Notes: generated by a model from the letters alone, not told the origin. 64,000 bases of DNA from a virus (IMGVR_UViG_3300028588_000019:8475-72474); one strand, 5' to 3'; positions 4,137 to 16,398 are shown, numbered from the stretch's first letter. Numbers and translations are program-made.

Positions 4137-4467
4137 GGGATCATGTATCCAGAGGGTTAAGGGGTGCAACAGGGACAACTGTACAGGGGAAATGCGGTTA
4201 TGCAAAGGAATATTTTACGGGGTGGAATTTGGACTGATCGTGGTGTAACTATCGGGTCCGAGATACGGAATTTTCGGTGGGGTATTTTTTCCGCAAATGG
4301 GTAATGTTGAGGTGAAAAAGGGAAGGGGGTGGGTCTAGTGGAACAGATAGAGGATGGGATTGGAGGGCAGTGATGGTTCTAGATAGGGAACTTTGGATTT
4401 TTTACCTAAAATATCACCCCATAGCCTAATATATAGGCATCCGCCCCGATTTACTTACGGCCACTAT

Positions 4468-4564
4468 GTTCCACGCGTTCCACGCACCCTACAGCGCACG
4501 CGCGCACAGCACCCTCCTGCCCCACGCGCAAATTGTTCCACGCGCGCCTACCCCTGTTCCACGC
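4468..4564 (+). repeat. four GTTCCACGC direct repeats (iteron-like)
   Basis: copies at 4468, 4477, 4535, 4556; inverted GTGGAA(C) at 4222 and 4338 across a G-rich/C-rich skew switch at ~4400. Confidence 0.8.
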
Positions 4565-4743
4565 GGTTTAAACCGCATACCTGCTGCCAGGGTGCGCCAG
4601 GGTGCACCAGGCACCCCAGCCGCAGCCCCATAGGTTTTAGCTATGTGTTCCAGTTTGCCCGATAGTTATATACAATCTGCCAAGGTGCACAACCGTGTAT
4701 AGTTACACCTATGCGCTGCACACAACGCTGCACGCAGTACCCC

Positions 4744-4772
4744 GCAAGGGGTGCGCTGTACCCTTGCTTTTT
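4744..4772 (+). terminator. intrinsic terminator-like hairpin
   Basis: GCAAGGG..GTAC/CCTTGC stem followed by TTTTT. Confidence 0.4.
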
Positions 4773-4856
4773 AACAACATAGCAGCTTACTACTAAGCAA
4801 CATTACTATATAGCAATAATGCTGTATAGCAACATACTTTACTATAGGTAAACATT

Positions 4857-5312
4857 ATGCAAAACGCTAAATTCGGTAATACCAAAAACGCAATCGCACG
4901 TATGCAAGCACGCATTGCAGCTGTACAAGCACTGCGCAGCAGCAAGCACGCTGCTCGGGTTGCAGCACGCAACCAACAAGCGTTTACCCTGCAAATGCAG
5001 CAGCTAGCAGCACAGTACAACGTTGCACCCGAGCAGCTTAAAGCAATGCTTGGTGCTACCGACCGTGCAGCACGCGCTAACAGTGCAACTGCTAACCCTA
5101 GCACCGAACTGGTAACGGTTAACGGTGTTAGTTACAAACCATGCGCAGCAGTGCACGCACTGTGCGATTGGTTGGTTAGCACCGAACCAAACGCAACCCG
5201 TAAGCAAATGTTGGAGTTGTGCAAGGATAATGGCATTAACGCAAGTACTGCTGCAACGCAGGTCGGTTTGTACCGTGCACGCGCTAAAGCAGCAGCAGAC
5301 GCAGCACAGTAA
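4857..5312 (+). CDS. Ala/Gln-rich protein with the C-terminal domain shared by four paralogs; encoded almost without GA/TC
   Basis: VHALCD...GINASTAATQVGLYR; all 8 GA dinucleotides come from Asp/Glu codons and there are only 4 TC. Confidence 0.8.
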   Translation: MQNAKFGNTKNAIARMQARIAAVQALRSSKHAARVAARNQQAFTLQMQQLAAQYNVAPEQLKAMLGATDRAARANSATANPSTELVTVNGVSYKPCAAVHALCDWLVSTEPNATRKQMLELCKDNGINASTAATQVGLYRARAKAAADAAQ

Positions 5313-5487: not shown

Positions 5488-5736
5488 TAAGCTCTGCTCC
5501 CACGTTTACACCTTCACGAATAGGGTGTGGGATGACAGGCAACCCCCATGAGTAACCGCGTGCGTGTATGAGCCCGGGACCAAGGATTAAAAGCCGCATG
5601 GGGGAAAATATATTCAGTGGTCCGACCTAACCTGAGTAACAGCTAGTACCTTATCACGAGAAGGTTAGTCAGCATGGTCGGGGTGTGCCCGCGTGACAGG
5701 CGGCATACTTATGTTCACTACCAAGTGCACATAAGT
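5488..5736 (+). ncRNA. cluster of stem-loops upstream of the early array (unassigned structured leader)
   Basis: CCCCCATG/CATGGGGG, CGACC/GGTCG, GTGTGCC/GGCATAC and CTTATGT/ACATAAG stems; no good ORF. Confidence 0.45.
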
Positions 5737-5765
5737 TGATAACCACACTAACAGGGGAATTAATC

Positions 5766-6005
5766 ATGGCATACAACGCTAATATCGAGCAACTTGCAGT
5801 CGACATCAAAAGCTTGACCGATACCGACCTGCAATACCTCGTCAGCTTGCTCAGCAGCGACAGTGACATGGAGGACGACGTCCGCGAGTCAAGCTGCATG
5901 GGTGCAATGGCTTACGCATACCGTACCAGCCGTGCAGTCATCGCTCAGCGCGACTTCAACCTGCGCGAGCAGGCAGCGATGGATGACGCGAACTACAAAT
6001 GGTAG
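5766..6005 (+). CDS. small acidic early protein
   Basis: SD AGGGG then ATG 5766; D/E-rich. Confidence 0.8.
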   Translation: MAYNANIEQLAVDIKSLTDTDLQYLVSLLSSDSDMEDDVRESSCMGAMAYAYRTSRAVIAQRDFNLREQAAMDDANYKW

Positions 6006-6053
6006 AGTAATTTACTAGCTTGCCGTGGCAGGCTAGTGAGTGCACTCTGCACT
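6003..6053 (+). ncRNA. stop-anchored pseudoknot motif, copy R1
   Basis: AGAGT (6004-6008) pairs with loop ACTCT (6044-6048); 11-bp P1; P2 AGTGC/GCACT. Confidence 0.8.
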
Positions 6054-6076
6054 AAACCAACTAACAGGAGTAATTC

Positions 6077-6226
6077 ATGGCAAAGTATAAGATTTCTTAC
6101 ACCCTCAACGGTGCACCACGGAGCAAGGCTGTTTCAGCTGAAAGCGACGGAGAAGCTTGGGAGCTAGCTGAAGAAATAGCTGACCAGTTTGACGACTGTG
6201 AAATCATAAGCGTTGTCGAACAGTAA
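6077..6226 (+). CDS. 49-aa acidic early protein
   Basis: SD AGGAG; MAKYKISYTL...VVEQ, not in the ORF track because it is under 60 aa. Confidence 0.75.
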   Translation: MAKYKISYTLNGAPRSKAVSAESDGEAWELAEEIADQFDDCEIISVVEQ

Positions 6227-6278
6227 GAGTAATTTAGTAGCCTATTCACGAGTAGGTTACTGAGTGCGCTCTTGCACT
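6224..6278 (+). ncRNA. stop-anchored pseudoknot motif, copy R2
   Basis: AAGAGT/GCTCTT pseudoknot; P1 6236-6261; P2 AGTGC/GCACT. Confidence 0.8.
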
Positions 6279-6303
6279 AAAACAACAACATAGGGAGTAA
6301 CTC

Positions 6304-6501
6304 ATGAAAATGATTAAATTCGGTCTTATCCTCACCTTCACGCTTAACACCGTACTGCTTGGCGCTTTTGACCGCTGGGCTAAGTCCGGTGATGGTTTGG
6401 AGTGGTACGGTTTGCTGATGGAAGTTGCAGTGAGTCTTGCAATGTTGGCAAACTTGCTGTCCGCTTCCATGGTGGCAATTTTGCATGCGGAGGGCAAGTG
6501 A
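6304..6501 (+). CDS. small membrane protein
   Basis: SD GGGAG; two hydrophobic helices. Confidence 0.75.
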   Translation: MKMIKFGLILTFTLNTVLLGAFDRWAKSGDGLEWYGLLMEVAVSLAMLANLLSASMVAILHAEGK

Positions 6502-6584
6502 CCCTCTACATCACTCTGCTCGGGTACGTTGTACCTGCAATCGCAATCACGTACTTCGTCAAAACCATCATTAACGACCTGTGA
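6498..6584 (+). CDS. 28-aa membrane peptide
   Basis: GTG start overlaps the upstream stop (GTGA); hydrophobic; its stop anchors R3. Confidence 0.55.
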   Translation: MTLYITLLGYVVPAIAITYFVKTIINDL

Positions 6585-6636
6585 AAGTAATTTGTAAGCC
6601 TGGCGCGCTAGGCTTGCGAGTGCACTTTCCCGCACT
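6582..6636 (+). ncRNA. stop-anchored pseudoknot motif, copy R3
   Basis: GAAAGT/ACTTTC pseudoknot (covaried); P1 6594-6617; P2 AGTGC/GCACT. Confidence 0.8.
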
Positions 6637-6658
6637 ATCACAACATAAAGGTAATACT

Positions 6659-7009
6659 ATGAACACCATCACCACCCACGCAGCATACATCGCTCACCTC
6701 GTTTCTAACGGTCGTCACGCAGGCCTTGCCAAAGCAATGGTCACCGAGTTCTTCTGGTCAAGCATTAACGGACCAGAAAACGACCTGTTGTATTCGGGTA
6801 GCGACGAGGAAACGCCATGCAGCCTCGAGCCAGCGCAAGCACTTGCCGAATTCGATGCAATTGTTCATGATTACAACGCTGCTGTAACCGAGGATGGCAT
6901 CATGTTCGACGGTGAACTTATGTTCGACCTCGACGGTGAGTATGCCACAAGCGGCTCAGGCAACGCATCGATCGTTCGTGGCTACGAGAACGGCGGTAAC
7001 TTCAACTAA
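6659..7009 (+). CDS. acidic early protein
   Basis: SD AAGG then ATG 6659; D/E-rich. Confidence 0.8.
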   Translation: MNTITTHAAYIAHLVSNGRHAGLAKAMVTEFFWSSINGPENDLLYSGSDEETPCSLEPAQALAEFDAIVHDYNAAVTEDGIMFDGELMFDLDGEYATSGSGNASIVRGYENGGNFN

Positions 7010-7059
7010 GAGCAATTTACTACCTCAGCGTGCTGGGGTAGTGAGTGCGCTCTTGCACT
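7007..7059 (+). ncRNA. stop-anchored pseudoknot motif, copy R4
   Basis: AAGAGC/GCTCTT perfect 6 bp; P1 7019-7042; P2 AGTGC/GCACT. Confidence 0.8.
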
Positions 7060-7079
7060 ATCACAACATAAGGATTCAC

Positions 7080-7208
7080 ATGTACACAATTATCGCCTTG
7101 ATTGAAGTTTGCCATGAAGTAGTCTTCACCCGCGACGGGTTGTACCTCGTCACCACCATCGTGGACCACTTCAACAAGCGCACCATCCAAATTGCAGAGG
7201 AGATCTAA
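7080..7208 (+). CDS. 42-aa early protein
   Basis: SD AAGGA then ATG 7080. Confidence 0.65.
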   Translation: MYTIIALIEVCHEVVFTRDGLYLVTTIVDHFNKRTIQIAEEI

Positions 7209-7210
7209 TC

Positions 7211-7429
7211 ATGCGTCATCCAATCGACTTTCAAGCTTCGCATGCTCAGATTAAAGAAGACCCTGAGTACGCAATCGAAGTGCTTGTTCACTATGTGCCG
7301 TTCAACCTGCACATGATGATTAACGAATTCATGGACGAGTTCGTACAAAAGCATTCATTCCAGGTGTACACGGCCAGCCCACTCGTTGGTCAGTTCTTCA
7401 TGTGGTTGAAGGACACCCACAAAGATTAA
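7211..7429 (+). CDS. small early protein
   Basis: SD GAGGAG; its stop anchors R5. Confidence 0.75.
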   Translation: MRHPIDFQASHAQIKEDPEYAIEVLVHYVPFNLHMMINEFMDEFVQKHSFQVYTASPLVGQFFMWLKDTHKD

Positions 7430-7478
7430 AGCTCTAGCTAAGTGGTCTTCACGGGCCACTTGACGAGCGCTTTGCTCG
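7427..7478 (+). ncRNA. stop-anchored pseudoknot motif, copy R5
   Basis: AAAGC/GCTTT; P1 7439-7462; P2 covaried to CGAGC/GCTCG. Confidence 0.75.
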
Positions 7479-7495
7479 CTAACAAAGGAACTAAA

Positions 7496-7786
7496 ATGAC
7501 TAAGATTGAATTAACGCAGTTCAAACAGACCAACCTGCGCGATGTTCTTGAACGTGCACAGGAACTCTTGGTGAGTCTTGCAACCATCTGCAACGACAAC
7601 AAGAGCCGAATCCAAATCGCTGAAAAGATGCTGAAGCAAGTTGACCCAGGCGATGACTGGGAGCGGGTTGCTTGGTCGCTGGTCAACATCGAGTTGGTTG
7701 AGCGGATTATTCGTGAAGAGGACGCAAGCCTTCTGAAGTATCCTGAAGACTGGGATGGCGGCATCAACGTTGGGACGAAGGAGTAA
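7496..7786 (+). CDS. small early protein
   Basis: SD AAGGA then ATG 7496. Confidence 0.75.
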   Translation: MTKIELTQFKQTNLRDVLERAQELLVSLATICNDNKSRIQIAEKMLKQVDPGDDWERVAWSLVNIELVERIIREEDASLLKYPEDWDGGINVGTKE

Positions 7787-7789
7787 TTC

Positions 7790-7978
7790 ATGATTAAGCT
7801 GATCCCGCTCCCAAAGACGCCGAAGGTTCGCGTCAACCTGCACCTCGAGGAAGGTGTGGTCGCCCACTTCAAGCATGTCGCTGAGCTTGAAGAACGCCCA
7901 TACCAGCCACTCATTAACAAGGTGCTTCGCGAGTATATCGAGTCGCTGCCGCCTGAGCAACGTTATCACAATCGCTGA
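7790..7978 (+). CDS. BrnA-antitoxin-like ribbon-helix-helix protein (orphan)
   Basis: KVRVNLHLEEGVVAHFK...PYQPLINKVLREY matches the BrnA/CopG RHH pattern. Confidence 0.6.
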   Translation: MIKLIPLPKTPKVRVNLHLEEGVVAHFKHVAELEERPYQPLINKVLREYIESLPPEQRYHNR

Positions 7979-7987
7979 GGTGCTGAT

Positions 7988-8083
7988 GTGTTTTGGGACT
8001 ACGTTCTAGCAGTCATTGCACTGTGTTTGATCCCACCCGCCGTCGTATTCCTGATTCTTTGGTGGTTTGGCGACGACTTTTAA
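7988..8083 (+). CDS. 31-aa membrane peptide
   Basis: SD GAGGTG, GTG start, hydrophobic. Confidence 0.5.
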   Translation: MFWDYVLAVIALCLIPPAVVFLILWWFGDDF

Positions 8084-8096
8084 TTAGGAGAGCGAA

Positions 8097-8315
8097 ATGA
8101 GTAAACCCCTCACGATTGAACAAGAAATCCACGCTCGCATCAAACGGACCGAGCTTTTCGCAGCAATGAGGTCTTCAGGTAATTACGAAGACGATCTTGC
8201 AATTATCGACATCATTCTCGAAATGCGCGAGCGTGCCCGCAACGGGGGTGACCCCGAAGAACTCTTATACGAAGAGGGCTTTGAACCCGACTACGTATTT
8301 GACCTTATTGACTAA
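8097..8315 (+). CDS. small acidic early protein
   Basis: SD AGGAG; acidic C-terminus. Confidence 0.75.
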   Translation: MSKPLTIEQEIHARIKRTELFAAMRSSGNYEDDLAIIDIILEMRERARNGGDPEELLYEEGFEPDYVFDLID

Positions 8316-8371
8316 AGCTCTAGCTCATGACCACACTACCACGGTGCGGTCATGGTCGAGCGCTTTGCTCG
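8313..8371 (+). ncRNA. stop-anchored pseudoknot motif, copy R6
   Basis: AAAGC/GCTTT; P1 TCATGACC/GGTCATGG; P2 CGAGC/GCTCG. Confidence 0.75.
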
Positions 8372-8389
8372 TAATAGAAAGGACATTGT

Positions 8390-8554
8390 ATGCTGCAATA
8401 CAGAAAGGCGCTGATTGATTTCAGCCACGAGTACTTCCATCAGTACATCGATGAATTCCTTGCGGGATACAGCATCCCAGCAGGTATGACCTATCCTCAA
8501 CTTGTCCACCAGTTCGCTGAGTGGTGCGAGTCTTGCGGCTTTTGGGAGGTTTAA
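8390..8554 (+). CDS. 54-aa early protein
   Basis: SD AAGGA; MLQYRKALID...GFWEV. Confidence 0.65.
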   Translation: MLQYRKALIDFSHEYFHQYIDEFLAGYSIPAGMTYPQLVHQFAEWCESCGFWEV

Positions 8555-8556
8555 CC

Positions 8557-8763
8557 ATGAAGTTCGAATTCAAAAGCTCGAACGGCCAACTCATGATGAG
8601 TATTGAGTCCCCGAACACTAAGTTCGCCAAGCTGGTCAAGCAAATGTTCATTAACGAAATGAAAGACATTCACGGACCAGGCTTCAACATGTCCGTCTCC
8701 ACTCCTATCGAGGGTGGGACGTTCGAGCAATACAGCCACGGTATCGAGTGCCGGGTATCATAA
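8557..8763 (+). CDS. small early protein
   Basis: SD GGAGG then ATG 8557. Confidence 0.75.
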   Translation: MKFEFKSSNGQLMMSIESPNTKFAKLVKQMFINEMKDIHGPGFNMSVSTPIEGGTFEQYSHGIECRVS

Positions 8764-8805
8764 AGTAATCTCCTAGCTCGTTCTGCGGGCTAGTGGATGC
8801 ACTTT
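8761..8805 (+). ncRNA. stop-anchored pseudoknot motif, copy R7 (truncated)
   Basis: AAAGT/ACTTT and P1 CTAGCTCG/CGGGCTAG are present; the 3' strand of P2 is missing. Confidence 0.6.
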
Positions 8806-8835
8806 AAATATGTGTATGCACTTTTGCTTTTGCCA

Positions 8836-8844
8836 TGGTATAAT
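8836..8844 (+). promoter_or_regulatory. extended -10 promoter for the HNH gene
   Basis: TGG-TATAAT upstream of 8880. Confidence 0.55.
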
Positions 8845-8879
8845 AACCGTGTTGTTCAATTTCACGACAAGGATAAACC

Positions 8880-9347
8880 ATGAGCAAGCGTCACGACATA
8901 AGCGGTCAAAAGTTTAATCAACTCACTGTAACGAGTTTCTCGCACACAAGCCCAACAAGGCGTGCGATGTGGAATTGTGTCTGTGATTGTGGAGGCACAA
9001 CAGTTGTGTCACTGCAAAACCTGCGCAATGAAAAGGTCAAAACTTGCGGGTGCATATTCACGTACCTCTGCCAAGATGAGATCTATGGTGTTTGGAGGGG
9101 TATGATTCAACGCTGTACCAATCCAAACTCTGAAGGTTGGAAGCATTATGGTGGTCGAGGGATTACTGTCTGCGAACGATGGAAGTTGTTTAAGAACTTT
9201 CATGAAGATATGAGCCCGCGCCCTAGTCCCGAGTACCAGTTGGACCGCAAGAACAATGACGAAGGGTACTCAAAAGACAATTGTCATTGGATTACAGGCC
9301 TTGAGAACATTCAAAAGGCACACGCAATTAAACGAAGTAAATCTTAA
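8880..9347 (+). CDS. HNH-type homing endonuclease
   Basis: WNCVCDCG, WRGMIQRC, YGGRGITVCERW, LDRKNNDEGYSKDNC(H)W motifs. Confidence 0.85.
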   Translation: MSKRHDISGQKFNQLTVTSFSHTSPTRRAMWNCVCDCGGTTVVSLQNLRNEKVKTCGCIFTYLCQDEIYGVWRGMIQRCTNPNSEGWKHYGGRGITVCERWKLFKNFHEDMSPRPSPEYQLDRKNNDEGYSKDNCHWITGLENIQKAHAIKRSKS

Positions 9348-9369
9348 CAACGTAAAGGACAGACTAATC

Positions 9370-9648
9370 ATGAATAATCAGAACGCCCCGCAAACCGGTC
9401 AAGTATTCACCGGCGCAGGCATCGACTACTACCGCTTGACCACACTCAAGCATGCTCTGAAACTGGAGTCCAAAGGCTTGAAGTCACGCGGAGGAGCACT
9501 TCGTCCGCAGTGGCATGCGCAACTTGGCCTTCGTTCACGTGACTCTTACCTCGTTTTCGTGAACAGGATCATTGACTTGCAGAACGAGTATCTCAAAGCT
9601 AATGGAACACCAGCTGAAAAGCTCATTCCACATCTGGAGTCATTATAA
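9370..9648 (+). CDS. hypothetical early protein
   Basis: SD AAGGA then ATG 9370. Confidence 0.7.
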   Translation: MNNQNAPQTGQVFTGAGIDYYRLTTLKHALKLESKGLKSRGGALRPQWHAQLGLRSRDSYLVFVNRIIDLQNEYLKANGTPAEKLIPHLESL

Positions 9649-9947
9649 GACGCAGAGTCGACGCCAAAATAAATTGTAACAGTTCCGTCCAATTGCGCGC
9701 AAACAAGCCCACAGCACCGAAAATCGGTTAAACTGGGCGTGTTGGTGCAGTAATTAGCGGGGTTTTGGGGGGTTTTTGGGTGCGGGTGCGCCCTACCCCC
9801 TAACCTAGTGCGCAAAACAGCGCCTAGGGTGCTTGCCGTGCGCGGCAGCTACCTTGCGGGTTACATGGTAAGTCCCCACGTTGCAGCTGCAAGGGGGTTT
9901 ACCGGGTAATCTTGCCCAAGTTCTTTCACAATCTAAGGAGAAACACC

Positions 9948-10724
9948 ATGGCACAAGCTCAAACCTCCGCAGCTCCTGGCAAAACCAAAGCTGCGCCACG
10001 CGCATCCCGCGCAAAGAAACCGCAAGCTGAGCAAGTCGTGCAGACGACTGGCAATGCAACGGGCCCTGGCGGCAAGAACATGCCAGAAGTCACCGCGCAG
10101 AACCAGAACCCGCCTGAAATCACGCAAGAGCAGCGTCAAGGTGAACGTCGTCAGCAACAGCAGAGCGCAATCGCGCGCTTTGCCAACCAGTCGATGGACA
10201 CCCCGGCAGCTCACAACGTGCCTGAAGTCACGGACGAACAGCGTAAGCTGATCGCCTTCCAGGAGCAGATGCGCATCACCGCTGAGCAGTTCGGTGTGCA
10301 GCTTCCGCCAAACCTCGAAGACGTGCTCAACGGCAAGGTTGAACAGCCGCAAGCTCAAGGCGCGCAGGGTGCACAACGTGCTCCGCGCAACGCTGACAGC
10401 CAGAACGGTGTCACGCGCCCTGCCAAGGGTACGAAGACCGGTCAGGTGTGGGACGCAGCCGACGCAATCTCGACCAGCAAGAACGGCCAACCGGCCACGA
10501 TTGCTGAAGTCAAAGAGAAGTTGGCTGGTAGCGTCAACGACGCCACGACCCGCACGCAGTATTCGCGGTGGCGTAACTACCACGGCATCAAAGGCCGGCT
10601 CGATGCTCAACCTCAGCAGCAACAAGCTGCCAGTCCTGAAGGACGTGACGAGGGTATCGAGAAAGCCTTCGGTCGTCGCAAGGACGATGTCGACCGTCGC
10701 CAAGCTGAACCAGCTGCACAGTAA
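9948..10724 (+). CDS. Q/A-rich putative DNA-binding protein with the shared C-terminal domain
   Basis: SQNGVTRPAKGTKTGQVWDAAD...NDATTRTQYSRWR; SD AAGGAG. Confidence 0.8.
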   Translation: MAQAQTSAAPGKTKAAPRASRAKKPQAEQVVQTTGNATGPGGKNMPEVTAQNQNPPEITQEQRQGERRQQQQSAIARFANQSMDTPAAHNVPEVTDEQRKLIAFQEQMRITAEQFGVQLPPNLEDVLNGKVEQPQAQGAQGAQRAPRNADSQNGVTRPAKGTKTGQVWDAADAISTSKNGQPATIAEVKEKLAGSVNDATTRTQYSRWRNYHGIKGRLDAQPQQQQAASPEGRDEGIEKAFGRRKDDVDRRQAEPAAQ

Positions 10725-10733
10725 TACAATTTC

Positions 10734-10762
10734 AACCCCGCCCTGAACCAGCGGGGTTTTTT
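10734..10762 (+). terminator. intrinsic terminator
   Basis: AACCCCGC/GCGGGGTT stem followed by a T-run. Confidence 0.8.
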
Positions 10763-10787
10763 ATTGGCAAAACTTTAGGAGTTAATC

Positions 10788-10961
10788 ATGATGAGTGGTG
10801 AAAAGCTTTACGCACTCTACGAAGAGGGGAACTCCACGTTGAACAATTGTATCGTCGACACTTGGGAGCAGTTATCAACTGACGACAAAGCTGTTTGGGA
10901 GCGCATGGCAGAAGATATCAACGACCATACGCAACGTGCCATTACCGACGTATTCACCTAA
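10788..10961 (+). CDS. 57-aa acidic protein
   Basis: SD AGGAG; its stop TAA abuts hammerhead 1. Confidence 0.7.
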   Translation: MMSGEKLYALYEEGNSTLNNCIVDTWEQLSTDDKAVWERMAEDINDHTQRAITDVFT

Positions 10962-11010
10962 CCACACTGACGAGACCTCAATGGTCGAAACCGCTTCGGC
11001 GGTCTGTGGT
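10961..11010 (+). ncRNA. hammerhead ribozyme, type I (HH1)
   Basis: ACCACA-CUGACGA-GACC(UCAAU)GGUC-GAAA-CCGC(UUCG)GCGG-UC-UGUGGU; predicted cut after C11004. Confidence 0.93.
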
Positions 11011-11040
11011 ATGTGCCACGAGTAACAGAAAGGAAGTAAG

Positions 11041-11322
11041 ATGGCAAAGATGTTTATGACAATCAAAACGGTCTATCATATTCGAGGTAAGTCTCCGAAA
11101 GTTAACCGTTCATACAACGCAAACAGAGCAGTCATGCAATGCGTCGCTCACATGCAAATCAACCACTACGGAGCACACGTTGCTGAAGTGTACGATGATG
11201 GCACAGGTGAACTGCATGCACAGGTCAAGCGCAAAGCAGACGGTTCGTTGCACATTCACTTCCAACGTGACCCGCAGAACTTCGAAACCAAGTACGCCAT
11301 GTCCCATCTTTTAGGCCTTTAA
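11041..11322 (+). CDS. hypothetical protein
   Basis: SD AAGGA; directly downstream of HH1. Confidence 0.8.
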   Translation: MAKMFMTIKTVYHIRGKSPKVNRSYNANRAVMQCVAHMQINHYGAHVAEVYDDGTGELHAQVKRKADGSLHIHFQRDPQNFETKYAMSHLLGL

Positions 11323-11332
11323 GGAGTTAGCC

Positions 11333-11572
11333 ATGAATAGTCAGATCCCGAGCAACTATACCTGCATGATTGACGAGTACCAGCGCAAGCTGATGCACGA
11401 CGTGTTCCAGGCTGTGCTCCTGCGCGACGATATGCGTGCACACTTAACCACACTAGAAGGATCCTTCGCGGACAACGCTCTGGAGGAACTGGAGATACTG
11501 CGTGACATGCTTAAGGATCTTCCCGAGCAAGAACAAAAGAGCCCAGGCGTAACTCACGGGCTGTGCCTGTAG
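11333..11572 (+). CDS. hypothetical protein
   Basis: SD AAGGAG. Confidence 0.75.
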   Translation: MNSQIPSNYTCMIDEYQRKLMHDVFQAVLLRDDMRAHLTTLEGSFADNALEELEILRDMLKDLPEQEQKSPGVTHGLCL

Positions 11573-11580
11573 TAATCACG

Positions 11581-11607
11581 AAGGGCTGAGTAGAGCCCTT
11601 TTATTTT
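11581..11607 (+). terminator. intrinsic terminator
   Basis: AAGGGCT/AGCCCTT stem followed by TTATTTT. Confidence 0.6.
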
Positions 11608-11622
11608 AATGAGGAGGTAATC

Positions 11623-11796
11623 GTGAATAGTCTTGATCGGAGAATCGTACGTAGTCGTAATAAGCGAGAGGGTTGCTACTACGACCGACCTATTTGGTGG
11701 AAATACAAAAATGGTCCAAACCGTAAGAAACGGAACGAGTTAAAGCTGGTGCAACGCGGGAAGAAGTTTAGTACCACTCGGACCAAGAAAGTTTAA
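11623..11796 (+). CDS. 57-aa very basic protein
   Basis: SD GAGGAGG, GTG start; K/R-rich; its stop abuts HH2. Confidence 0.65.
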   Translation: MNSLDRRIVRSRNKREGCYYDRPIWWKYKNGPNRKKRNELKLVQRGKKFSTTRTKKV

Positions 11797-11857
11797 CCAC
11801 ACTGACGAGCGCTAGTGCGCGAAACCGTGGCACGGAATATTGTGCGCGGTCTGTGGT
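11796..11857 (+). ncRNA. hammerhead ribozyme, type I (HH2)
   Basis: ACCACA-CUGACGA-GCGC(UAGU)GCGC-GAAA-CCGU...GCGG-UC-UGUGGU; predicted cut after C11851. Confidence 0.92.
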
Positions 11858-12176
11858 AGAAGTGAACAGTTTGCTGTTATTTGGGTTAGTATATGACAAA
11901 TAATGGGTGCTTACCCTATGTAAACGTACTATAAATTAAGTAAAAAAGAAGATTATATATAGTATAGGTAGGAACACCCACCCTCCCGGGATGGTTTCGC
12001 AGCCCCAACACCACCCACAAATAACGCTAAAGCATAACTTGCTCGTTATTATGGCAATTAACTGTATATACTACCCTACCCCCGGCTGTTGTTTATTGCG
12101 TTAGCCCTGTTTCAGCACTATACAGGGGAGGGGTAGGGTGTTATATTAGTGGTTTCCCCACCACGCAAGGATCACC

Positions 12177-12842
12177 ATGCCCCCGATTCAACTACTTAAC
12201 CATGTCAATCTTGAAACAGCTTACCTGCTGCCTGATTTCCCATACAGCTTCGGGACCAAAACGAAAGCTCGCTATTGGATTGAAACCCGCCAAGCATACG
12301 GGCAGCGGCTGTACACACAGTTCTGCGCACCTCGTTCGGAAAGCTGGTACAAGCCGAAGCCAAGCCTGTACAGCGACATCATTGTGATGACGGTGGACAC
12401 CAATGGCTATGACGCTGGCTTAGTTGTCCCGCACTTTATCGACGTGCAATCATTAAACGCAGAGCAGCTCAAGCAGTTTGCGGAATATTTCGTCCTAACC
12501 CCTTTCCAAAAGGATCGTGTGATGAAGGGTCTTGCCCGGAACAATGTCCACTATGCCCCAAAGTGGCGCAACAGTGAGGGGCTTAACCTGCGCTTGCATA
12601 TGATGGCTGAAACTAAACCAACTGCGTTGGAGCAAGTCACTAGAGGGGTAAACAGTGTGGGTATCACAACACAGTCTGCGGAGGATGCGCTCAAGGAACA
12701 ACGTCGCCGCGAACGGGAAGCTAAGACCATTATCAACACGCCCACCCCGGTCGCAAGGATGCCTAATGCAGACGCTGACGATACGACGGGCATGACCCCA
12801 GAGCAAATCGCTGTTTACAACGACCTGATGGGGAAGAGCTGA
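12177..12842 (+). CDS. hypothetical protein
   Basis: long ORF with SD AAGGA; RYWIET...W.KPK motif. Confidence 0.8.
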   Translation: MPPIQLLNHVNLETAYLLPDFPYSFGTKTKARYWIETRQAYGQRLYTQFCAPRSESWYKPKPSLYSDIIVMTVDTNGYDAGLVVPHFIDVQSLNAEQLKQFAEYFVLTPFQKDRVMKGLARNNVHYAPKWRNSEGLNLRLHMMAETKPTALEQVTRGVNSVGITTQSAEDALKEQRRREREAKTIINTPTPVARMPNADADDTTGMTPEQIAVYNDLMGKS

Positions 12843-13258
12843 TGACCTTCGACTTTATGAGCCTACCGCGCTCCGTCCAATCGGACGTCAAACCAATTGC
12901 TGAGCTCCAAGTGTACCATGTGGATGCACAGCTGGACGATGACCACACTTGGCCGGTTCTGTACCGCGCTCACTCACGCGTGGAATTCGCAGACTACTAC
13001 GTCAGCGCTTCAGTCTGGTTTGCAGCTTACCGCATCCTGGACTACACGCCGTGTGGCGTTTGGATTTCGCAAGGTGTGCAGAAGCGCAAGTTCGTCAATC
13101 TCAAAGCTGTTAAGCAATGGGCTTACCTTACTAAGGAAGAAGCCCTGCACAGCCTGAACCGGCGTAAGCAAATGCACGTTCGCCATCTTACACACGAACT
13201 TGCAGCGGCCGAGGCCCTTGCAGACTACGTTCAGCGCACGATGGAGCATAACAAATGA
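12842..13258 (+). CDS. hypothetical protein
   Basis: overlaps the upstream stop (TGATG). Confidence 0.75.
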   Translation: MTFDFMSLPRSVQSDVKPIAELQVYHVDAQLDDDHTWPVLYRAHSRVEFADYYVSASVWFAAYRILDYTPCGVWISQGVQKRKFVNLKAVKQWAYLTKEEALHSLNRRKQMHVRHLTHELAAAEALADYVQRTMEHNK

Positions 13259-13366
13259 CACAGCAATACGATAAGCCCGTCACCCGGCATTTGTCGGTAA
13301 CGGGTATTTCGAAGAAGATGTATTCAACCAGATGTACGAAGATTTAGCTCCCGAGAAAGGAAGATA

Positions 13367-13642
13367 ATGGACTATAAATACCTCACATTCAAAACCGAGC
13401 GTTCTAGGATCCGCATAGCTAGGATTCTGAAGCTACTGGAAACTCCCATGACCCGCGACAAGCTGGAGGAATGTGGTTATATGAGCAAGACAACAGCGAT
13501 TTACTGTCTACGTCATTTGCGAGAATGTACGCCGCCGAAAATCTTCATCAGTGGCTACGAAGAACGTTTTCAAAACAGGCCTGCGCCGGTCTATTCATTA
13601 GGTGCGGGTCCGGACGTTCAACCGCCACGGAAGGTTGCATGA
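13367..13642 (+). CDS. winged-HTH protein, paralog of 506-928
   Basis: IFISGY...PVYSLGAGPDV. Confidence 0.65.
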   Translation: MDYKYLTFKTERSRIRIARILKLLETPMTRDKLEECGYMSKTTAIYCLRHLRECTPPKIFISGYEERFQNRPAPVYSLGAGPDVQPPRKVA

Positions 13643-13731
13643 ACAAATGGCGCTGCCGCTATTGCGGTGTATGGAACCGACCAACCGCTGTCATTTGCTG
13701 GTGCAGGAGGAAAATTAATGAGCGAACCTAA
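13639..13731 (+). CDS. 30-aa Zn-finger-like peptide
   Basis: WRCRYCGVWN...ICWC; ATGA overlap. Confidence 0.5.
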   Translation: MNKWRCRYCGVWNRPTAVICWCRRKINERT

Positions 13732-13942
13732 AGCGTACGACTACGTGATTGCCGCTGCTAAACTGGCTGCTCGCGATATGAAGCGTCTGAAAGCAAAGCC
13801 GCACATTGTCCAGATTCGTGATTTGGGTGGTACAGTTTTTTATGCGGTTTATAGGAACCGAAATGCTGTTCGTTTGATAGGTTACGTCAACAGCTTGGAC
13901 CAGCTAACGCAAAATTGGGCCTACATAACGCGGATGCCCTAA
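13718..13942 (+). CDS. hypothetical protein
   Basis: SD AGGAGG then ATG 13718. Confidence 0.7.
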   Translation: MSEPKAYDYVIAAAKLAARDMKRLKAKPHIVQIRDLGGTVFYAVYRNRNAVRLIGYVNSLDQLTQNWAYITRMP

Positions 13943-13970
13943 TAGCTGGAAATAAATTAAATTTCAGCCA

Positions 13971-14000
13971 ATGCACTGTGGTATAATACTTACAGTGCAT
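13971..14000 (+). promoter_or_regulatory. extended -10 promoter inside an inverted repeat
   Basis: ATGCACTGT-G-GTATAAT-ACTT-ACAGTGCAT. Confidence 0.65.
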
Positions 14001-14033
14001 TTACGGAAGTTTATCAAAATACTAGAGGGTTAC

Positions 14034-14219
14034 ATGTTCAACAGTCCAGAACGACTCAAGCGTCTCGATGAGACTTGCATGCTCTGCGCCCAAAGGTTCG
14101 GAGATCATAGCGTCCACAACGAGTGCCCTACGATGAAGGAACGTAAGATCGTTCGGCACCATTTTGAAACCACCTTGTTCCGCGGAACGGGTCATTACAG
14201 GGAGCGACTGAAAGAATGA
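14034..14219 (+). CDS. small Cys/His protein
   Basis: CxxC...H...C; SD GAGG. Confidence 0.6.
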   Translation: MFNSPERLKRLDETCMLCAQRFGDHSVHNECPTMKERKIVRHHFETTLFRGTGHYRERLKE

Positions 14220-14542
14220 CGTACAAGACAGTAATCTGTGAAAACTTAGACTGCCGAAAGCAGTTTAAAGCACGCCTTGCGGACATTGCGCGGGGCTGGG
14301 GTCGTTTCTGCTGCAAAAGCTGTAAAGCTGCTGTACAGTCCCGTAACGGGGGTAAGCTACCAGCACTGCCCAAGCGGGGTAAACGCGCAGCACAACCCCG
14401 TAGGTTGCAACCAAAGGACCGTCCGCGCTACGCTACAACGCAACCTAAGCGCCCCGTAAACCATTGGGAAGTTGAGCATCAGCGGGCAAAAGACAATTTT
14501 GATGAGTACGATCGTATTTGCGCTGAGGAGGACCAGCAATGA
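14216..14542 (+). CDS. Zn-finger protein
   Basis: CENLDCRKQF...GRFCCKSC. Confidence 0.7.
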   Translation: MTYKTVICENLDCRKQFKARLADIARGWGRFCCKSCKAAVQSRNGGKLPALPKRGKRAAQPRRLQPKDRPRYATTQPKRPVNHWEVEHQRAKDNFDEYDRICAEEDQQ

Positions 14543-14712
14543 AGCCTTCCGGTGCACTTATCTTCGTCCGTACGACAAAGACCTACAACGTTGAAATGCC
14601 CTTGTACAGGCTGTACACCAAGTCTGGTTCAGCTGCTGGCGTTTACGCAAGTCACAGCGACGCTGCACGCTTCGCAGCTAAAAGCAATCTCGTGCATGTA
14701 GGTCCACAATGA
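14539..14712 (+). CDS. 57-aa hypothetical protein
   Basis: SD GAGGAGG, ATGA overlap. Confidence 0.55.
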   Translation: MKPSGALIFVRTTKTYNVEMPLYRLYTKSGSAAGVYASHSDAARFAAKSNLVHVGPQ

Positions 14713-14834
14713 ACCGTATCTGCAAAGTTTGCGGTCAACCCAAGGGCCTACCCATTCACACCGCTTGCAGTAGACAACTCAAAGCGGTCAAACGCTTAGC
14801 AGCTATTGCTAAGAAACAATCAGGTCTTAAATAG
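14709..14834 (+). CDS. 41-aa CxxC peptide
   Basis: CKVCG...H..C; ATGA overlap. Confidence 0.5.
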   Translation: MNRICKVCGQPKGLPIHTACSRQLKAVKRLAAIAKKQSGLK

Positions 14835-14842
14835 GAGGTATA

Positions 14843-15034
14843 ATGAAGTACAAAGCATTTTACAAATGTCGCTGGTGTCAGGGGGTTTTTAGCTATAGTG
14901 TGCCTGAAAACCACCGTAACAATCCGGTCGGTCTCACCATGCAACATTCGATGGTGACAACGCATAAGTGCGACGACATCCGAACAGGAATCGCTGACCT
15001 CATAGGCGTTAAGACGGAGAACTTAAATGATTAA
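14843..15034 (+). CDS. Zn-ribbon protein
   Basis: YKCRWC...HKC; SD GGAGG. Confidence 0.65.
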   Translation: MKYKAFYKCRWCQGVFSYSVPENHRNNPVGLTMQHSMVTTHKCDDIRTGIADLIGVKTENLND

Positions 15035-15314
15035 CGCAACCAACTTCAAAACCCTCGACCTCAAGAAAGTAATTGAGCGCGCCAACGAAATCCTGTGCTG
15101 TCTGCCACTGCTTGATCCGCATGTGGCCTACGGTCTTGAGATTGCTGAAGGTCGTTTGACCGGGCAAGACATTGTATCTCGTCACGAACCGCTGGACCTG
15201 TGGGAGAAGCTGGCGTGGCAAATGGTTTACGCAGAGCTTCGAGAGCAATGCATTCGTGACGGTGACCCGAGCGTTGAAAAGCGCCCAGTCAATTGGAATG
15301 GTGGTTTGACCTAA
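15027..15314 (+). CDS. hypothetical protein
   Basis: SD GGAG; its stop anchors R8. Confidence 0.7.
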   Translation: MINATNFKTLDLKKVIERANEILCCLPLLDPHVAYGLEIAEGRLTGQDIVSRHEPLDLWEKLAWQMVYAELREQCIRDGDPSVEKRPVNWNGGLT

Positions 15315-15363
15315 GTACCAGCCACAGCGTCGTGACAGGGCGCTGTAACGGGTGCTTTACCCG
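15312..15363 (+). ncRNA. stop-anchored pseudoknot motif, copy R8
   Basis: AAGT/GCTT; P1 ACAGCGTC/GGCGCTGT; P2 covaried to CGGGT/ACCCG with loop GCTTT. Confidence 0.7.
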
Positions 15364-16118: not shown

Positions 16119-16325
16119 ATGGATATGCGAGTGCGCGAAAAGACGGACACCGATCGCCAAAACGACATCAACCGTCTTTCGCACCAAGAAATGGCGGAAA
16201 TCATGCATTTCACGCCGAATAACCACACTTACCGCACTGGCCCATACCGCGCCATGTTCGACGCACGATTCAAGCGGCTGGGTGGTATGACCAAAGAACT
16301 GAAAAAAGAACTTGCAGCCTACTGA
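16119..16325 (+). CDS. hypothetical protein
   Basis: SD AGGAG; its stop TGA is part of the HH3 core CUGAUGA. Confidence 0.75.
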   Translation: MDMRVREKTDTDRQNDINRLSHQEMAEIMHFTPNNHTYRTGPYRAMFDARFKRLGGMTKELKKELAAY

Positions 16326-16366
16326 TGAGCTCGTAAGAGCGAAACCGCCGAGAGGCGGTCTAGGCT
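16316..16366 (+). ncRNA. hammerhead ribozyme, type I (HH3)
   Basis: AGCCUA-CUGAUGA-GCUC(GUAA)GAGC-GAAA-CCGCC(GAGA)GGCGG-UC-UAGGCU; predicted cut after C16360. Confidence 0.95.
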
Positions 16367-16398
16367 TAATAACAAGTCTAACTAAACCGGAGGTTATT

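Follow-up and report, generated by a model that had tools for sequence, protein, structure and literature searches.

The early genes of an uncultured tailed phage (IMG/VR record IMGVR_UViG_3300028588_000019) are punctuated by repeated copies of a small pseudoknotted motif, which opens with the stop codon of one gene and is followed by the ribosome-binding site of the next. The window analysed here is a stretch of 64,000 nucleotides (nt), corresponding to bases 8475-72474 of the complete, 72,474-base-pair (bp) virus record with direct terminal repeats. It contains six intact copies of the motif (starting at 6003, 6224, 6582, 7007, 7427 and 8313), one broken copy (8761) and one divergent copy (15312), all on the plus strand. 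The motif is absent from the RNA families catalogued in Rfam 15 and spans at least two unrelated groups of phages. From its fold, strand, position and spread, we tentatively infer a cis-acting RNA boundary module, non-catalytic and uncleaved, that would stabilise and insulate cistrons on the polycistronic early messenger RNA (mRNA).

Direct reading and parsing by script give the same order of elements in the six intact copies (R1-R6): a stop codon, a short 5' strand (S1), a linker, hairpin A, hairpin B, an A/C-rich leader, a Shine-Dalgarno (SD) sequence and an ATG. In each of them S1 is 5-6 nt long, takes the second base of the upstream stop codon as its own first base, and can pair along its whole length with the loop of hairpin B, in line with a preliminary description of this DNA. 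The linker measures 4-6 nt (AAUU(U) or UCUAGC). The hairpin between the two strands is likewise present, although it reaches ~10-13 bp on the widest parse, rather than the 8-11 bp first described, and is closed by loops such as CGUG. Hairpin B, with a stem of 5 bp, comes after a junction of 0-2 nt. The open reading frames (ORFs) upstream of R1-R6 are 50-144 codons long. A structural descriptor of this arrangement scores 13-16 on R1-R6 and finds zero matches of 14 or more in five block shuffles of the window, which bears out the proposal that these repeats are real structured copies.

R1 (6003-6053) illustrates the layout, with the stop codon TAG at 6003-6005, S1 at 6004-6008, the linker at 6009-6013, hairpin A at 6014-6037, the 5' strand of stem B (B5') at 6039-6043, the loop that pairs with S1 at 6044-6048 and the 3' strand (B3') at 6049-6053; it scores 67.7 bits with a covariance model. 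The leader after R1 (6054-6079) is A/C-rich and unstructured and runs into the SD sequence AGGAG and an ATG, and a leader of this kind follows every intact copy. R2 (6224-6278) opens with TAA and pairs S1 AAGAGT with the loop GCTCTT above a B stem of AGTGC/GCACT. In a strain variant seen in a low-depth contig, its hairpin A carries the compensatory changes 6244 A>G and 6253 T>C, which turn an A-T pair into G-C, together with two wobble-type changes. R3 (6582-6636) opens with TGA, and its S1 GAAAGT pairs with ACTTTC, which lies within a loop of 8 nt. R4 (7007-7059; stop TAA) pairs AAGAGC with the loop GCTCTT. R5 (7427-7478; stop TAA) represents another subfamily, with S1 AAAGC and loop GCTTT, the linker TCTAGC(T) and the B stem CGAGC/GCTCG; R6 (8313-8371) belongs to the same subfamily and has a longer hairpin A with one mismatch.

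A pattern search of IMG/VR built on hairpin B of R1-R4 returned 35 loci, ~20 of which also carry the upstream stop, S1 and hairpin A, as well as the leader, SD sequence and ATG downstream. Scanning five whole contigs and further loci brought the collection to 45 distinct members. Four of the source phages (G000, G001, G003 and G004) are related, with virion proteins 55-83% identical and a G+C content of 40-54%. The others (G002, G005 and several contigs; group II, with the linker UCAGC or UUAGC) have no protein in common with the window phage at an E-value of 1e-5, and the motif therefore likely relies on host machinery or on nothing at all. A covariance model built from eight group I copies proved too narrow for the family, missing R5, R6, R8 and most of the group II copies, and its alignment misplaces 6-nt loops, so that S1:loop pairs were counted by script.

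Across the family the architecture is compact. Hairpin A is stable, in many cases with a UNCG or GNRA cap, and most copies have no nucleotide between A and B. The loop of hairpin B, 4-7 nt long, is wholly paired with S1: its 5' end has no unpaired base in 42 of 45 copies, and its 3' end none in 35 of 45. S1 and linker together measure 9-12 nt in 29 of 36 copies. In many group II copies, read by eye, the SD sequence lies ~3-8 nt past B3'. The motif marks off groups of translationally coupled ORFs and is not present after every ORF. No nucleotide is invariant. Variation extends to S1, the loop and stem of B, the linker, the A loop, the junction and the tail, and conserved sequence is confined to subfamilies, as with a YAGC linker and a GUGACAG loop on hairpin A. 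We also considered loop B as a pairing partner for the downstream SD sequence. This idea fits only the variants with a purine-rich S1 and fails for the GACAUU, GAAUUU and GAACUG copies, whose SD sequence is GGAG.

What is conserved in place of sequence is complementarity. The covariation of the 5-bp B stem noted for the window extends across phages to ~20 complementary versions, among them AGUGC/GCACU, CGAGC/GCUCG, CGGGY/RCCCG, GAUGC/GCAUC, GAUCC/GGAUC, AGUCC/GGACU, AGUGG/CCACU, CGGAC/GUCCG and GUAGG/CCUAC, and S1 and the loop pair in more than 20 different versions. In a model-derived alignment of helices A and B, 96% of the cells are paired and both sides have changed in 15 of 16 pairs; none of 500 shuffles scores as high, and sliding the partner strand lowers pairing to 26-41%, although the alignment was fitted to the structure and hence favours pairing. 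For S1 and the loop, the mean contiguous pairing of members with their own loop is 4.91, compared with 3.87 +/- 0.11 when loops are permuted among members, and 0 of 2000 permutations reach 4.91. Furthermore, we scanned IMG/VR afresh with the pattern TGA-NNNN-TYAGC-N(18-26)-AGTGC-N(5-7)-GCACT, which leaves the four free S1 bases and the loop unconstrained. The 71 distinct matches are bimodal: 42 show 5-6 consecutive stop-anchored S1:loop pairs, and 26 show 0-2 and look random. All 42 of the former have a short stem or better at the position of hairpin A (at least 4 bp in 36), and 39 have an SD sequence and an ATG downstream. These true matches include the pairs GACAUU/AAUGUC, GACAUA/UAUGUC, GACAGU/ACUGUC, GACUUU/AAAGUC, GACUUA/UAAGUC, GACAAU/AUUGUC, GAUAUU/AAUAUC and GACAGC/GCUGUU. 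Because the scan imposed nothing on S1 or the loop, its bimodal outcome establishes the leader-loop pairing on comparative evidence.

The strand on which this fold is selected can be read from the wobble pairs. In 43 distinct A stems we counted 364 Watson-Crick pairs, 75 G·U pairs and 0 A·C, where the parser counts G·U as paired and so biases the G·U tally upward; on the opposite strand all of these positions would be mismatches. A G·U to A·C ratio of 75:0 argues that the fold is selected on the mRNA-sense strand, which gives a direction to the earlier suggestion that compensatory changes in three helices reflect selection on a single-stranded structure. The preservation of shape with free sequence in the B stems, in the S1/loop pairs and in the generic stable loops of hairpin A suits a mechanical or structural role.

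The stop codon at the edge of the motif is a further recurrent feature. As described at the outset, the stop of the preceding ORF opens all eight window copies. When S1 is defined by its pairing alone, the triplet from -1 to +2 is TAA, TGA or TAG in 33 of 45 members, where ~5% would be expected, and the stop of an upstream ORF of at least 40 codons falls at offset 0 in 24 of the 37 copies that have one, with offsets of -9 to +17 elsewhere. Among the exceptions, some ORFs stop earlier, and others run on to a second stop within S1 or the linker. The stop triplet is retained even where it is out of frame, which suggests that it is inherited as part of the repeat. The first copy in the array of one related phage (G003) has no stop triplet, starting with CAAAGU directly after a promoter-like TATTAT, and some arrays carry the motif ahead of their first gene with no long ORF upstream, so that it evidently serves as a 5' leader where no translation ends ahead of it. 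The stop therefore belongs to the module by inheritance, and not every copy strictly requires it for function. We found no indication of a read-through or frameshift signal: in 39 group II copies the distances from stop to ATG are spread evenly over the three frames (12, 15 and 12), which excludes read-through or fusion to the next ORF, and in-frame stops occur within a few codons in the window copies. In 23 of 45 copies the 5' part of the motif closes two or three reading frames within 17 nt.

The short connections restrict how the helices can be arranged in space. A zero-length connection is unable to cross the shallow groove of a helix of 5-6 bp, which excludes a classical H-type stack given the junction between A and B. 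A geometry like that of fully paired kissing loops is feasible, in which the loop strand (S1') would stack on B3' while B5' spans the deep groove; helices A, B and S1 could then line up as a rod of ~20-24 bp, along which the linker would return. In nested folding, A+B and A+S1 are nearly isoenergetic, the minimum free energy (MFE) structure containing S1 for 27 of 36 members and B for the other 9. In R1-R4 the MFE fold takes the form of an irregular ~20-bp hairpin interrupted by an internal loop, and that of R6 is a long irregular hairpin as well; the summed helix lengths correspond to two helical turns. A plain long hairpin was rejected as the conserved fold, as group II does not conserve its AUUU:GAGU extension, a pairing that competes with the covarying B stem.

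The slot occupied by the motif is shared with self-cleaving hammerheads on the same strand of the window, as had been reported. A type I hammerhead (10961-11026) is found as a sub-threshold Rfam match (10961-11010, 26.6 bits) with an intact core, and its stem I starts from the last base of the stop codon TAA at 10959-10961. A second (11796-11857), whose core was read by eye, starts its stem I from the last base of the TAA at 11794-11796. The third (16312-16384), again a sub-threshold match with an intact core (16312-16369), has an upstream ORF that stops inside its CUGAUGA core. The 3' product beginning at 11011 can start with a 5-bp hairpin (TGTGG-TATGTG-CCACG), and that beginning at 16362 with a 7-bp hairpin (TAGGCTT-AATAAC-AAGTCTA), in both cases with the 3' strand of stem I reused. 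These product hairpins, which two of the three hammerheads can form, are followed by an A-rich leader and an SD sequence. A hammerhead with an alternative product hairpin also occurs in the related phage G001. In this combination of hammerhead, product hairpin and leader, the synthetic RiboJ insulator has a natural counterpart. The phage thus makes one boundary two ways, each consisting of a stop codon, a folded RNA, a short hairpin, an open leader and an SD sequence. Like the phage hammerheads and RiboJ, the motif stands between a stop and an A-rich leader, has a closing helix that starts from the stop, and places a short hairpin before the leader; unlike them, it has no conserved core of any kind and folds as a pseudoknot instead of a three-way junction. 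The purpose of hammerheads and other ribozymes located between phage genes is an open question (PMC6765202).

It is mainly because the hammerhead modules build the same boundary that we read the pseudoknot as a boundary, stabiliser and insulator. On this proposal, all nucleotides from the second base of the stop onwards, except the linker of 4-6 nt, would be locked in a compact fold in which the pairing of the B loop with S1 resembles half of a kissing-loop complex. The A/C-rich leader, unable to fold, would then present the SD sequence and the ATG, and hardly any RNA would stay naked from the last translated codon to the next ribosome-binding site. The module would give the upstream cistron a protective 3' structure, and the downstream cistron a 5'-proximal structure together with a ribosome-binding site that stays open whatever gene precedes it. 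Short units of 1-4 ORFs could in this way become independent in decay and translation, and hence exchangeable, and the motif would be the uncleaved counterpart of the hammerhead and 5' hairpin modules of the same phage. Several points weigh against this proposal. A plain stable hairpin suffices for 3' protection, so the need for a pseudoknot is unexplained, and the near-exact placement of the stop is accounted for only indirectly, as a way of leaving no unprotected nucleotides. Given the near-equal folding energies of A+B and A+S1, the B and S1 helices could alternate instead of coexisting, and the hammerhead analogy could equally fit a motif that is cut. Furthermore, the RNA runs (X7 and X8) yielded only contig pieces of 151 nt, which carry no information on RNA ends, strand or level.

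We compared the motif with catalogued RNA elements. Rfam 15 gave no match to it, either at the gathering threshold over the whole window or in E-value mode on stretches of 20 kb and 1.1 kb and on five group II loci. For the hammerhead clan (CL00010), cmscan was silent on R1-R8 even at E-values up to 10 on the 1.1-kb stretch, and no CUGANGA, GAAA or UH core is visible in the copies; the three hammerheads of the window, two found by cmscan and one by eye, served as controls. Twister, twister-sister, pistol, hatchet and hepatitis delta virus (HDV)-like ribozymes had no Rfam 15 match in the window or in the group II contigs, in agreement with the failure of the first reading to assign the motif to any of these classes. 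The helices of an HDV ribozyme follow the order P1-P2-P3-P3'-P1'-P4-P4'-P2', and in pistol the loop of a 5' hairpin pairs downstream. The order in the motif, S1-A-A'-B5'-S1'-B3', fits neither of these, nor twister or hatchet. The small coremin element xrRNA-C, which blocks 5'-to-3' exonuclease and scanning ribosomes and is in some cases intergenic, consists of a 5'-proximal 4-bp hairpin with a YGAD or YGNNAD loop, a spacer of 8-10 nt and a second hairpin (hp2) that is conserved in structure only (PMC10520033). The motif resembles it as a small element of two hairpins, the second conserved only in structure. It does not fit the definition of xrRNA-C, since the order is reversed, with the small hairpin 3' of the large one, and the loop is free in sequence (GCUCUU, AAUGUC, UAGUUC) and pairs with an upstream strand.

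The coincidence of stop and helix could also mean that translation itself operates the motif. A broader formulation, which takes the motif either for a self-cleaving RNA of a new class or for a device driven by termination, with the stop built into the closing helix and the ribosome toggling the fate of the next unit, is possible but doubtful. In its specific form, which we consider unlikely, a ribosome terminating with the stop in its A site would hold S1 and the linker (9-12 nt) inside the mRNA channel and melt the S1:loop helix, leaving A and B intact. Downstream initiation, re-initiation or nuclease access would then depend on whether loop B is free or held in the pseudoknot, which would couple the downstream unit to upstream translation. 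The frequency of the stop triplet at S1 and of ORF stops at offset 0, the length of S1 plus linker and the near-isoenergetic alternatives are all as such a switch would have them. The same may be said of the hammerheads, whose stem I likewise starts at or within the stop region and whose 3' strand has an alternative hairpin partner. A folded pseudoknot would in addition bring the stop near the leader, at the short distance to the SD sequence seen in group II. The switch is at odds with the copies that have no long upstream ORF, a displaced stop or no stop triplet at all, and with the retention of out-of-frame triplets, which points to inheritance with the repeat; genome compaction alone could also put a stop at the edge of a helix. 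Because the hammerheads occupy the same slot, cleavage by host enzymes and self-cleavage both keep some weight. Host endoribonucleases might act at the motif, RNase III on the A+B+S1 rod, RNase E in the linker, or an RNase P- or Z-like enzyme on the 10-12 bp stack of B and S1. The early RNase III signals of phage T7 (R0.3, R0.5, R1.1 and others) are structured elements of ~50 nt that follow stop codons and precede the next ribosome-binding site; they are single irregular hairpins of ~20 bp or more with a known cutting enzyme, and they leave a protective hairpin on the upstream message. As a general comparison, the motif resembles them as a repeated ~50-nt structure, stop-adjacent and ahead of a ribosome-binding site on polycistronic early mRNA, and host cutting would likewise yield units with hairpin A at the 3' end and hairpin B at the 5' end. 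It differs from them in its covarying second hairpin, whose loop pairs with a 5' strand. The irregular ~20-bp MFE hairpin and the two helical turns would suit RNase III. The search of the phage genome found no RNase III of its own; a host enzyme would thus be needed, which fits the occurrence of the motif in unrelated phages. We nevertheless regard this reading as quite unlikely, since the AUUU:GAGU extension of the long hairpin is unconserved in group II whereas the B stem covaries, and since the linker sequence varies between subfamilies.

Among the first suggestions was a self-cleaving ribozyme of a new class, processing the early transcript like the neighbouring hammerheads; this now appears improbable. 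Nearness to hammerheads in phage DNA was the criterion that yielded twister-sister, pistol and hatchet (PMC6765202), and a compact pseudoknotted fold that matches none of the known classes would be in keeping with a further one. Every known ribozyme class has invariant nucleotides; their absence here argues, if only indirectly, against a catalytic core. Every paired position covaries, the linker, A loop, junction and tail vary, almost no unpaired nucleotides are left for an active site, and cleavage at the 5' edge would cost the upstream gene its stop codon. Further motifs located close to ribozymes showed no cleavage when tested (PMC6765202). An operator for a trans-acting phage or host protein that shuts off or tunes all early units, by binding that spreads over the leader, seems very improbable. 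The architecture of pseudoknot, unstructured leader and SD sequence is suggestive of one, as are the YAGC linker and the GUGACAG loop conserved within subfamilies. The model for such an operator is that of T4 gene 32, a single-copy classical H-type pseudoknot that is bound by gp32 and followed by an unstructured leader. Common to both is a pseudoknot that borders, on its 5' side, an unstructured leader running into an SD sequence and an AUG; the motif departs from the gene 32 operator in being multi-copy, with an inserted hairpin and a fully paired loop. The two phage groups, however, have no protein in common, and the family has no conserved sequence throughout. Finally, a DNA-level element, that is, a folded single-stranded site or repeat for cassette recombination, had been raised early on and is barely credible. 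The genes form a cassette-like array in which repeats offer homology for exchange, an HNH gene is inserted exactly inside one copy, and the 5' part often stops two or three frames. The PeSL of T4-type phages is a promoter with a plain stem-loop, and attC has a conserved core (GTTRRRY and its inverse) and needs an integrase. The motif resembles both, in general terms, as a repeated boundary element flanking small exchangeable ORFs, but it has neither a promoter with a plain stem-loop nor an attC core, S1 and S1' being without conserved sequence, and it is complementarity that is conserved. PF00589, whose control was positive in 14 of 14 genomes, found no integrase in the complete 72-kb genome. 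The 75:0 ratio fits RNA, and the motif keeps a constant orientation and distance to the SD sequence and ATG. A resemblance of GCACTA... to T7-like promoters was also set aside. Covarying complementarity argues for RNA and not a DNA site; PF00940 found no T7-like RNA polymerase in the genome, although its control also matched nowhere and is thus uninformative, and none was seen among the large ORFs scanned.

The motif is thus an uncatalogued, strongly covarying and small RNA element with a built-in stop codon, found in the slot of hammerheads in dozens of uncultured phages. It offers a tractable system for asking whether phages punctuate their early mRNAs for decay, for translational coupling or for the modularity of gene cassettes. 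If it is a natural insulator, it would provide a compact part for synthetic operons. If it should instead be a device actuated by termination, the toggled fate would be cleavage, decay or initiation of the next gene unit, and the hammerheads, whose stem I also starts at the stop codon, would share its logic.

The preliminary description counted eight copies in the window; all eight sites are real, and two of them depart from the intact form. R7 (8761-8805) belongs to an AATCTY/GATGC subfamily and is truncated, having S1, hairpin A, B5' and the loop but no B3', and scores 34.3 bits. The insertion that breaks it (8826-9347, plus strand) carries an extended -10 promoter-like sequence, TGGTATAAT, at ~8840-8850, recognised by eye, and an HNH endonuclease gene at 8880-9347 (155 aa; PHROG 374, E 5e-54). 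A contig of a related strain (run X2) tracks the window to 8805 and then continues, in a loose end, with CGCATC ATAACTTAGGAG...ATG, that is, with an intact B3', leader, SD sequence and start codon; the gene downstream differs from that in the window. Because this intact version diverges at 8805, the mobile HNH gene has been inserted exactly at the border between loop and B3'. An intact counterpart of R7 is also present in the related 69-kb phage G001. R8 (15312-15363) is divergent, with a 4-bp S1 helix (AAGT:GCTT, including one G·U), an A loop that holds GTGACAG and the B stem CGGGT/ACCCG. Its relatives in G001 have the linker ACCAGCC, a GUGACAG loop on hairpin A, 4-bp S1 helices (AAGU/ACUU and AAGC/GCUU) and B stems of CGGGU/ACCCG and CGGAU/AUCCG; R8 is a genuine subfamily member, because these copies share its linker, A loop and 4-bp S1 helices. 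The leader of the first array gene (5766-6005), at 5630-5765, contains a motif-like 5' part, TGAGTAACAGC, and a hairpin with the loop ATCACGAG. Next come a hairpin whose loop is GTGACAG and a long one. The leader lacks a canonical hairpin B and may be a composite or degenerate copy. On the minus strand of G002 (L057) at 8323-8411, and also in L017 at 4441-4529, two overlapping motif units stand at the start of an array. The B loop of the first (AAGAGUU) is the S1 of the second, so that the two pseudoknots are mutually exclusive, and this arrangement could act as a leader switch.

The gene content of the virus is that of a tailed phage, with a tape measure protein of 2019 aa, minor tail proteins and a family A DNA polymerase, in addition to a primase-polymerase/helicase, a ligase and an SNF2 helicase. 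DNA near-identical to that of the window phage is present in leaf-litter metagenomes. A blastn search of 5700-9000 against GenBank phages gave no match, and the relatives of the DNA polymerase in IMG/VR are only 34-44% identical and uninformative for the mini-gene array. In a search for prophages or a host, a conserved 476-aa protein of the virion region had no relative in the genome contigs searched. The early genes run rightward from near 4857, and the array of very small ORFs occupies 5766-8763. Between the leftward and rightward genes, the divergent region at 4400-4800 contains many short repeats (TTCCACGCG iterons and CAGGGTGC) and AT-rich promoter-like stretches, and is probably a regulatory, origin or genome-end region. 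Following the second hammerhead, an AT-rich non-coding gap of 300 nt (11860-12176) holds several TATAAT-like sites and inverted repeats and probably marks the start of the next transcription unit. Finally, two small early proteins (7496-7786 and 15027-15314), each preceding or following motif copies, look like paralogues; both match one and the same place in phage G004 by tblastn.

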